From: Eledone cirrhosa | Lineage: Eukaryota | Assembly (NCBI GenBank): GCA_964016885.1 | Contig: OZ024760.1 | Coordinates: 24,490,001-24,554,000 of the forward strand | Direction: 5' to 3' | Length of the DNA stretch: 64,000 nucleotides | Part shown: piece by piece, positions 7,366-9,872 of the stretch | How the letters are laid out: each line of letters begins with the position of its first letter | How positions within the stretch are numbered: position 1 is the stretch's first letter | Program-made: the position numbers and the translations under genes | The notes under the pieces: model-generated | What the model was told of the DNA's origin: nothing | What the model saw: the letters and a program-made list of their open reading frames with translations, nothing else | Databases searched by the model: none

Positions 7366-7519
7366 TATATATATATATATATATATTAGAAAGTGAGGTT
7401 TTTTTTACAAAATGAAAAATAACCGAGGTGTCCTACACGAGTGAAAGTATAAAGAAAGATGAAATCGAAAATGCAACTGGAGTCTTATTTAAAAAAAAAA
7501 TATATATATTTATTTGGTT

Positions 7520-7557
7520 CCTTTACCGGTTTCGCAGTTCTTCTGCTTTTCAAAAGG
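7520..7557 (-). ncRNA. Type I HHR, U3:A8 core variant
   Basis: CCTT-TTGAAAA-GCAGaagaaCTGC-GAAA-CCGG-TA-AAGG on the minus strand. Confidence 0.75.
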
Positions 7558-7999
7558 TGAGTTGAGATGGAGGGTCTGTGGTTTTTCTCACATCTGGCTG
7601 GTCTCTGAATGTTACTTGTTTTATATGAAAAAAGTGGCTCGAAATGCCAGGTTTTTCGAGAAGTAATTTGATTGGTTTGTCAATATTATAATAAATTTCG
7701 CGCCAGTTCGCGTTACAATAGTTCTTCAAATAAGAGGGGGGGGGGGGGCGGTTGTCACAGGTTGTTTTTTCATATATGAGTGTTTGAATTTCTTTTTACT
7801 TGAACAAAGGGGCTCACGAAGGCTTTTTTTTGATTGGTTATAAATGAAATTATGGCTGTCACGTGAACAATTATTGACAAATCAATCAAATTACTTCTCG
7901 AAAAACCTGGCATTTCGAGCCACTTTTTCCATATAAAACAAGTAACATTCAGAGACCAACCAGATGTGAGAAAAACCACAGACCCTCCATCTCAACTCA

Positions 8000-8037
8000 C
8001 CTTTTGAAAAGCAGTAGAACTGCGAAACCGGTAAAGG
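8000..8037 (+). ncRNA. Type I HHR, U3:A8 core variant
   Basis: CCTT-TTGAAAA-GCAGtagaaCTGC-GAAA-CCGG-TA-AAGG. Confidence 0.75.
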
Positions 8038-8522
8038 AGCCAAATAAACATATATATTTAAAAAAAAAATAAGACTCCAGTTGCATTTTCGATTTCATCT
8101 CTTTTTCTTTATATATATATATATATACACGCATATATATGTGTGTGTATGTATACATTCATATCTCTATGTATACACACATACACACCTACATATATTA
8201 TATATATATTTTCTTTTGATACATTCGATAAATATAAACTTGTCGTATCCTGTACGGATACACCTTGAAACATACACATATTGACATACCCAATATACCC
8301 GTATGTAAATGTTGGTCTATGTAGTTTTATATATTCATGCATGAAACACGTAAGTATATATCTACGCATATGTACAAATACCTATATGTGGATGTATATG
8401 ATTCGTTTCATGGTTGATATACTTTGAATGAGTATTTTACATCTTGTCAAGTAAATTTAAATGAGCCACTTATATTACATAATGTTGTGTGTATATATAT
8501 ATGTATATATATATATATATAT

Positions 8523-8655
8523 AGTACGTTATTCCGGGTTGAATCGGAGGTAACCACAGTAAGTAAGGTACTCAATACATTGCAGAGTATAAAAGTTTTA
8601 ATATAGATGAGATTCTACAGGACTAGAACTCTAGTCCTGTAGAATCTCATCTATA
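8523..8655 (-). mobile_element. Short fold-back element (family H) in (TA)n
   Basis: Palindrome ATAGATGAGATTCTACAGGACTAGA-ac-TCTAGTCCTGTAGAATCTCATCTAT plus an ~80 nt one-sided tail. Confidence 0.7.
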
Positions 8656-8790
8656 TATATATATATATATATGTATGTGTTTATATATATATATATATAA
8701 AATAAATACTTCTCTATCTCACTCCCTCTATATCTCTCTGCCTCTCTCTCTTTATATATATAGTATATATATATATATATATATATACAT

Positions 8791-8950
8791 AATGAAAGAA
8801 GTGTGGTAAGGAAGCAGATGGACCATAACGCACCAGAGTACTCAATATTTAGGGTAGTAGAGTAGGTAATAGGAAAACGTTCAAAACCTTGACGGCAGAG
8901 CTCAAGCCGTTTCGACGGCTATTTCTGTACTGAGTCTTGAACATTTTCCT
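8791..8950 (-). mobile_element. Family A copy, short second arm
   Basis: Homologous to 6688-6882. Confidence 0.8.
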
Positions 8951-9311
8951 ATATATATATATATATATATATATATTTATATGTATATATATATATATAT
9001 ATACAAATGGAAGTACAGCATATTCGAAGCTCGAGCCGGAGCTAAGCCGACGAATGGATTCAGAAGTGCAGCTAAGCATACAACCTTAGAGTAGGCATAC
9101 AACCTTAGAGTAATAACATACAGTTTAAAGGGCTTTGCACATTGAAGATAGCGACCGGTAATTCAGCCGCGGGGACCGTAGCAACGAAAGAACTGACTCG
9201 CGAGAAAAAATTACACACACACACACACACACACACACACACACACATATATATATATATATATATATATATATATATATATATATATATATATATATAT
9301 ATATATATATT

Positions 9312-9465
9312 ATAAAATAACAGGAGGCAGGACTGGTGTAAATCCTTGAAAGGTTTATTATACTATGATCATCATCGAGTGCTCTCCATAATATTGCATC
9401 GAGGTTAACCATACGGAATGACCAGTTCTAGCAAGTGTTGCACCAACAACGCTGAATAAATAAAT
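9312..9465 (-). mobile_element. Family E tail fragment
   Basis: 9312-9372 is the reverse complement of 35835-35895 (TGATCATAGTATAATAAACCTTTCAAGG...CTCCTGTTATTTTATA). Confidence 0.65.
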
Positions 9466-9555
9466 AAATATATATATATATATATATATATATATATATA
9501 TATATATATATATATATATATATATATATATATATATATATATATTTATATTTAC

Positions 9556-9872
9556 AGAATGAAAAATAACCGAGGTGTCCTACACGAGTGAAAGTATAAA
9601 GAAAAAAAGATGAAATCGAAAATGCAACTGGAATCTTATTTAAAAAGAATATATATATAATTATTTGGTTCCTATACCGGTTTCGCAGTTGTTCTGCTTT
9701 TCAAAAGTAGAGTTGAGATGGAGGGTCTGTGGTTTTTCTCACAGACCCTCCATCTCAACTCTACTTTTGAAAAGCAGAAGAACTGCGAAACCGGTAATGA
9801 ACCAAATAAATATATATATATTTAAAAAAAAATAAGATTCCAGTTGCATTTTCGATTTCATATTTTTTTCTT
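9556..9872. mobile_element. Family B fold-back copy with two U3:A8 HHR motifs (~9671-9708 minus, ~9763-9800 plus)
   Basis: Inverted arms meet at ~9735. Both contain TTGAAAA-GCAG...CTGC-GAAA-CCGG-TA. Confidence 0.8.

Follow-up and report, generated by a model that had tools for sequence, protein, structure and literature searches.

Head-to-head U3:A8 hammerhead motifs in two (TA)n fold-back insertions, likely derived from Penelope-like element 3′ ends

The window, a 64,000-nucleotide stretch of DNA, is strongly AT-rich and dominated by microsatellites, a composition that is compatible with an animal genome and that octopus genomes presumably share. It contains two fold-back insertions of one repeat family, termed family B here. 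Element B1 (7387–8113) comprises a 3′ tail of about 61 nt (7387–7447, minus strand), a pLTR-like left arm whose sense lies on the minus strand (7448–7685), a 186-nt unique spacer of upstream family sequence (7686–7871, minus strand; 5′-truncated at 7871), and an inverted, 5′-truncated right arm on the plus strand (7872–8113). The tail is present on the left arm only; the right arm matches just 7448–7685. Element B2 (9551–9878) likewise carries its 44-nt tail (9551–9594) on the left only, and its arms turn at a hairpin (9728–9743). The B1 arms differ by 13 substitutions over 238 aligned nt, seven of them within an A/T tract. At the turn, B2 has a TGTG..CACA hairpin with 4 nt common to both arms, and B1 has about 3 nt of microhomology. 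Both elements lie inside (TA)n on both sides, as expected of Penelope-like element (PLE) insertions into AT-rich or microsatellite targets, and the inverted 5′-truncated copy with a one-sided tail is likewise that of a PLE insertion. Because the flanks are (TA)n, a target-site duplication is not readable. At the polymorphic site 7557–7558, both arms of one insertion share the same state and B1 differs from B2; this is compatible with a mirror arm copied at insertion, in two of two cases only. A tblastn search over B1, B2 and nearby sequence linked no ORF to the family, and a tandem-repeat check over the two elements found inverted arms and no tandem array, that is, none of the tandem monomers of a retrozyme.

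Each arm holds one hammerhead-like motif, and the motifs of both elements face outward, head to head. A sequence-only reading had placed four copies with a TTGAAAA core, stem II, GAAA, CCGG and a GUA triplet at these positions, and inspection of the sequence together with a motif scan bears this out. The motifs occupy 7520–7557 (minus strand; U3 at 7553, core 7553–7547, GAAA 7533–7530, A17 at 7524) and 8000–8037 (plus; U3 at 8004, core 8004–8010) in B1, and 9671–9708 (minus; U3 at 9704) and 9763–9800 (plus; U3 at 9767) in B2. All have a 4-bp stem II (GCAG/CTGC) with a 5-nt loop, GAAA, CCGG, and a TA that yields the GUA triplet. The core pair is U3:A8 in all four, which is a Watson–Crick 3:8 pair as in a minimal type I hammerhead. 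Stem I, rightly described as clean in the first two copies, has 4 bp (CCTT/AAGG) in both B1 motifs; adjacent to the core it is interrupted at the first pair in the left B2 motif (0 bp) and has 1 bp in the right one. The motifs are not the four separate copies for which they had been taken: they come from two insertions that arose independently and are both built as inverted repeats with head-to-head arms; the first begins at about 7387 instead of 7408. The count of four also overlooked a further match. The pattern TTGANAA-N12-16-GAAACCGGTA occurs five times in the window, as against 0.00 in 100 shuffles, and none of the 100 equalled this count. The fifth motif (53497–53538, minus strand; pattern match 53501–53531) has the core TTGATAA and a stem II unlike that of family B, and shares the CCGG helix III.

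This fifth U3:A8 motif, at 53531, lies 425 nt 3′ of the stop codon of a PLE ORF of Neptune/Nematis type (53955–54909, minus strand). The ORF is 5′-truncated and frameshifted, and retains an RT thumb region, a CX4CX2C linker and a GIY-YIG endonuclease (PF01541, E 2.5e-06). A CX2-5CxxC linker has been described in Neptune, and a Zn-finger-like linker in both Neptune and Nematis (Craig 2021, PMC8557442). Protein alignment of the PLE ORF set retrieved eight metagenome loci and one genome-collection locus; the RT domain PF00078 is found in five of eight longer relatives of the window protein. A descriptor accepting any base at positions 3 and 8 was applied to nine PLE 3′ flanks, namely the window and eight loci (L005, which has no 3′ flank, was left out; the L007 flank is 87 nt long, and the ORF end of L009 is approximate). 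Six of the nine flanks contain exactly one hammerhead each, on the ORF strand, 72–540 nt behind the ORF and with a palindromic helix III. Three of these hammerheads (those of the window, L004 and L008) have U:A at 3:8 and the other three (L006, L010 and L012) have C:G; none has a mismatched pair. The stems of these six flanks differ, with L010 and L012 being close kin. Neither L009 nor L011 has a motif in its 3′ flank by this descriptor, and looser matches, a U:A within the L007 ORF and a C:A about 1.9 kb downstream in L011, were left uncounted. Shuffled sequences gave 0.012 matches per nine flanks with the same descriptor, which had been tuned after the matches were seen. Judged from sequence comparison, U3:A8 against C3:G8 is natural covariation among PLE relatives. 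In the protein tree of the ORFs, 12 of 15 inner branches are open, and a single origin of U3:A8 is not separated from repeated origins. One of the C:G loci, L012 (contig FXLX01000113.1), places an animal-type PLE ORF and a hammerhead in an assembly titled SUP05 bacterium, likely through host contamination. Pattern matches on viral contigs (L001–L003) all lack a proper stem II and were discarded as chance, and of 41 candidates from a search of viral contigs for PLE proteins, none was confirmed.

Rfam covariance models run over 7380–8110 at E ≤ 10 returned six matches, none of them a hammerhead. Over the whole window, the matches listed (150 of 702) are of microRNA type, fall on hairpins and microsatellites, and score below the gathering threshold. 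Rfam also called no hammerhead on the C3:G8 relatives or on a canonical motif at 39428. The proposal that canonical descriptors miss the family is accurate for the strict CUGANGA string, which misses the core; but the C3:G8 relatives are equally missed by Rfam, so that the invisibility is partly due to the minimal shape, and a U3-A8 descriptor has existed since 2014 (PMC4209133).

Similarity between family B and the 53531 motif was compared on either side of the core. Upstream, 169 of 200 shuffles reach the observed similarity; downstream it is marginal and reached by eight of 200. Flank similarity is thus near chance and does not point to the ORF at 53955–54909 as the parent of family B. The strict descriptor used in this comparison misses the C3:G8 motifs of the window and gives no ratio of U:A to C:G. 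A decayed older relative of family B is present at 45589–45759 (minus strand; 74% identity), with upstream similarity above that of 200 of 200 shuffles. It has kept TTGAAAA and CCGGTA, with GAAA changed to GCAA and stem II broken. The word GGCGCGAAA is retained in it at about 45,730. Candidate promoter-like words also occur in the B1 spacer region (7675–7865): TTTCGCGC at 7696, presumably E2F-like, CACGTG at 7860, TTTGAA at 7783 and, on the minus strand, CCAAT at 7675 and 7837.

Four of 22 listed sequencing runs (X1, X20, X4 and X9) were compared with 7395–7871. Matches amount to 5,873 contig records in X1 and 4,639 raw reads in X20, where depth over the core bin is about 740, a figure that does not equal copy number. 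These matches show an abundant family B repeat in which U3:A8 is carried by the majority. Among the 40 variant rows listed of 153, none falls within the core (7547–7553) or within 7524–7533; for these 17 positions about 1.5 rows would be expected, and zero are seen among the rows listed. Core conservation in this young family is not distinguishable from its general conservation and is not by itself evidence of selection. Only one T>C place is present in X1, at 7645, so the counts of changes put A8 to G8 below 2% there. Three of the four A>G places in X1 are identified, and C3 at 2–15% in X1 and X20 is compatible with the rows listed (40 of 153). The state at 7557–7558 that cuts stem I to about three pairs is the majority, at 54% of X1 depth and in 345 of 426 X20 reads (~81%); helix I of the family majority is therefore probably 3 bp. 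Family sequence extends beyond 7870 in 47 X1 contigs, which indicates that B1 is 5′-truncated. The runs also contain loose ends into (TA)n at 7400 and 7448 and opposite-strand joints at 7556/7592 and 7594/7595. U3:A8 is present in X4 and X9, which bear other organism labels; these records, shallow (21 and 2) and near-identical, may hold DNA of the same species and were set aside as cross-species support.

In folding predictions, helix II is closed by G10.1-C11.1, with pairing probabilities of 0.63–1.0 for GCAG/CTGC, and the predicted cleavage triplet, GUA, conforms to NUH. Helix III is the palindrome ACCGGU: in two-strand folding the inter-strand A15.1-U16.1 pair has a probability of 0.72–0.92, as against approximately zero in family B monomers. 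A U3-A17 pair is also predicted in B1, with a probability of 0.45–0.59, which echoes the alternative C3-G17 pair discussed in PMC3884650. Folds of the whole B1 element are long hairpins (−408 to −420 kcal/mol) that bury the motif, and the motif does not form in the single-arm fold of 7387–7620 either. Given a stem I that is short or broken, the U3-A17 pair that is predicted and an antisense arm that would sequester the motif, any cleavage would likely be weak or protein-dependent.

Minimal PLE hammerheads are reported to cleave poorly in vitro, and only as multimers (PMC4209133); the anole PLE hammerhead cuts only with protein, and hammerhead mutants do not lower insertion in vitro (PMC11167929). 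The statement that U3:A8 can retain activity is backed by covarying 3/8 ribozymes cited as active in vitro (Perreault 2011, PMC3088659), but when a type III hammerhead was scanned by pairwise mutation, rescue at 3:8 was reported for the G3:C8 swap only (PMC9901934). Taken together, these reports suggest that U3:A8 activity depends on context.

The variant itself has precedents. Natural U3-A8 was first reported in 2011 (Perreault et al., PMC3088659), where the covariation of the 3-8 tertiary pair is the same as here; that report, as far as its accessible text goes, is a general hammerhead survey in which the variant is not linked to fold-back insertions of PLEs. By 2014 the variant had been described in minimal hammerheads of the Schistosoma mansoni Cercyon PLE, together with the case for a second descriptor; the one devised for it gave ~1,300 matches (Cervera & de la Pena 2014, PMC4209133). 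Its supplement gives S. mansoni cores of UUGAAAA (motif 4) and UUGAUAA (motif 3). The Cercyon elements thus resemble the window in having both cores and a minimal type I motif within a PLE repeat, as well as a short helix I and a palindromic helix III; they occur mostly as single copies, with some opposite-strand pairs 100–700 bp apart (PMC4209133). In contrast to Cercyon, helix II of the window motifs is 4 bp long, A9 is followed by no extra base, and the palindromic loop 3 measures 2 nt, a trait of shrimp and fly PLEs (PMC4209133); the ORF linked to the variant here is of Neptune/Nematis type. Position 17 is A here, as against U and G in two S. mansoni rows of a table whose columns may be offset, and none of the mollusc rows in the accessible supplement is U3:A8 (PMC4209133). 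The literature covered, exclusive of subscription papers and of bioRxiv and Craig 2021 supplements, which may contain such a case, does not mention U3:A8 for any cephalopod or for a PLE of Neptune type. The idea of a natural covariant lineage is therefore upheld in that U3:A8 is family-wide, G8 is below 2% in X1 and the relatives carry only U:A or C:G; the novelty it implied is lost to the publications of 2011 and 2014 (PMC3088659, PMC4209133). The window motifs are rightly taken as a covariant core of a kind already described, and what is added is its occurrence in Neptune/Nematis-type PLEs and in a young family.

PLE insertions are described as having an inverted 5′-truncated copy, a 30–40-bp tail at one end and AT-rich or (TA)n targets (PMC8557442, PMC3846280). 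B1 and B2 share with insertions of endonuclease-bearing PLEs an inverted, 5′-truncated copy, arms set head to head, a tail on one side, a hammerhead within the repeat and a target of AT-rich or microsatellite DNA (Arkhipova 2013, PMC3846280; Craig 2021, PMC8557442; Frangieh 2024, PMC11167929). They differ in that no ORF remains and in a tail of 44–61 nt, compared with 30–40 nt in published PLEs (PMC8557442, PMC3846280). It is very probable that the motifs mark the head-to-head arms of a pair of (TA)n fold-back insertions, likely 5′-truncated PLE 3′ ends, and that their U3:A8 minimal hammerhead is a natural covariant with a predicted dimer-only fold and likely weak or protein-dependent cutting. 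The description of a non-coding mobile family holds to the extent that B1 and B2 have no ORF, but they are most likely the 3′ ends of PLEs.

Under this explanation, a PLE RT/endonuclease would nick AT-rich DNA and copy the RNA 3′ end. The mirror arm could arise as the 3′ end of the cDNA snaps back, at the TGTG..CACA hairpin in B2 and at the short microhomology in B1; alternatively, both target strands could be primed from two adjacent start sites, a route that would also yield the tail. Head-to-head PLE arms with junction palindromes have been interpreted as self-priming (PMC3846280, PMC8557442), and purified PLE protein is reported to act on both strands, nicking and extending them, with two neighbouring start sites on the RNA (PMC11167929). 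Within the parent RNA, helix III would be built by two copies pairing through the palindromic ACCGGU, and cleavage would follow GUA. In the genome, masking of the motif by the antisense arm likely leaves the fold-back copies inactive.

A dead hammerhead, in which U3 and A8 were inherited or drifted and the family amplified without cleavage, is a less probable but serious possibility. It would account for the broken stem I of B2, the three-pair stem I state at 7557–7558 that predominates in X1 and X20, the U3-A17 pair predicted in B1, and the burial of the motif in whole-element folds and its absence from the single-arm fold; the in vitro indifference of anole PLE insertion to hammerhead mutants (PMC11167929) and the deep scan rescued by G3:C8 alone (PMC9901934) agree with it. 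Against it stand the six motifs behind PLE ORFs, all Watson–Crick at 3:8 on unrelated stems, a sign that the pair has been under selection in the lineage, and the in vitro activity stated for covarying 3/8 ribozymes (Perreault 2011, PMC3088659). If the ribozyme were instead efficient and family B a non-autonomous, retrozyme-like element producing circular RNAs, its abundance, the lack of an ORF in the 484 nt seen and the palindromic helix III would fit. Animal non-LTR retrozymes are likewise non-coding repeats with a type I hammerhead, probably PLE-dependent and proposed as PLE derivatives, but are described as having tandem arrays and classical motifs in place of the inverted truncated ends and minimal motif found here (bioRxiv 10.64898/2026.07.22.740005). 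The inverted copies leave one sense motif per strand per element, no joint in the runs brings 3′ and 5′ ends together, and in vitro cleavage by minimal PLE hammerheads is poor (PMC4209133), all of which makes this account improbable.

Long inverted arms, insertion in TA and the lack of coding capacity would also suit MITEs or fold-back DNA transposons with an incidental hammerhead resemblance. This is very improbable, as the arms are unequal at the outer end, where the tail lies, and the turn point varies (7871/7685 in B1, about 7592 in B2, and the joints at 7556/7592 and 7594/7595). Moreover, family sequence continues past 7870, and the same type of motif is found behind GIY-YIG PLE ORFs.

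The window motifs carry a hammerhead core variant known from Schistosoma Cercyon elements over to Neptune/Nematis-type PLEs and to a young family of high abundance. With three U:A and three C:G motifs placed alike downstream of related ORFs, there is also a small natural series for testing tolerance of the 3:8 swap. Counts of PLE hammerheads made with the ^cuganga descriptor are undercounts; reports of PLE clades that lack hammerheads rest on descriptors of this type (PMC8557442). It may be speculated that U3:A8 recurs across Neptune/Nematis-type PLEs and that, where A17 accompanies it (family B, the 53531 motif and L004), the U3-A17 pair acts as a latch until the protein of the element refolds the ribozyme. 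Such a latch, which is rather unlikely, would tie RNA cleavage to retrotransposition.

Several further features occur in the window. A second repeat family with a tail, a fold-back of variable turn point and (TA)n flanks is present at 6690–6885, 8790–8955, 46320–46470 and 62290–62500, and no clear hammerhead core was found in these four copies. Canonical or near-canonical CTGANGA hammerhead-like motifs lie at 270 (minus), 36209 (plus), 39428 (minus), about 43793 (minus), 61538 (plus) and 62183 (plus); their helix III regions are mostly AT-rich palindromes, and a clean 4-bp helix I is seen at 39428. Within (TA)n, short palindromes that are perfect or nearly so occupy 7181–7259 and 8604–8655, the first turning beside a minus-strand CTGAAGA. 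A PLE-like ORF remnant (22907–24029, minus strand) contains by eye a GIY-YIG-like YIGAT and has no Pfam match; scans show no clear hammerhead behind it. A 332-aa frame at 10407–11405 (minus strand) resembles by eye the C-terminal part of a LINE reverse transcriptase, with no Pfam match at E 0.01. Finally, 29978–31992 holds a complex duplication, both inverted and direct, whose arms are about 680 nt long and 94–99% identical.
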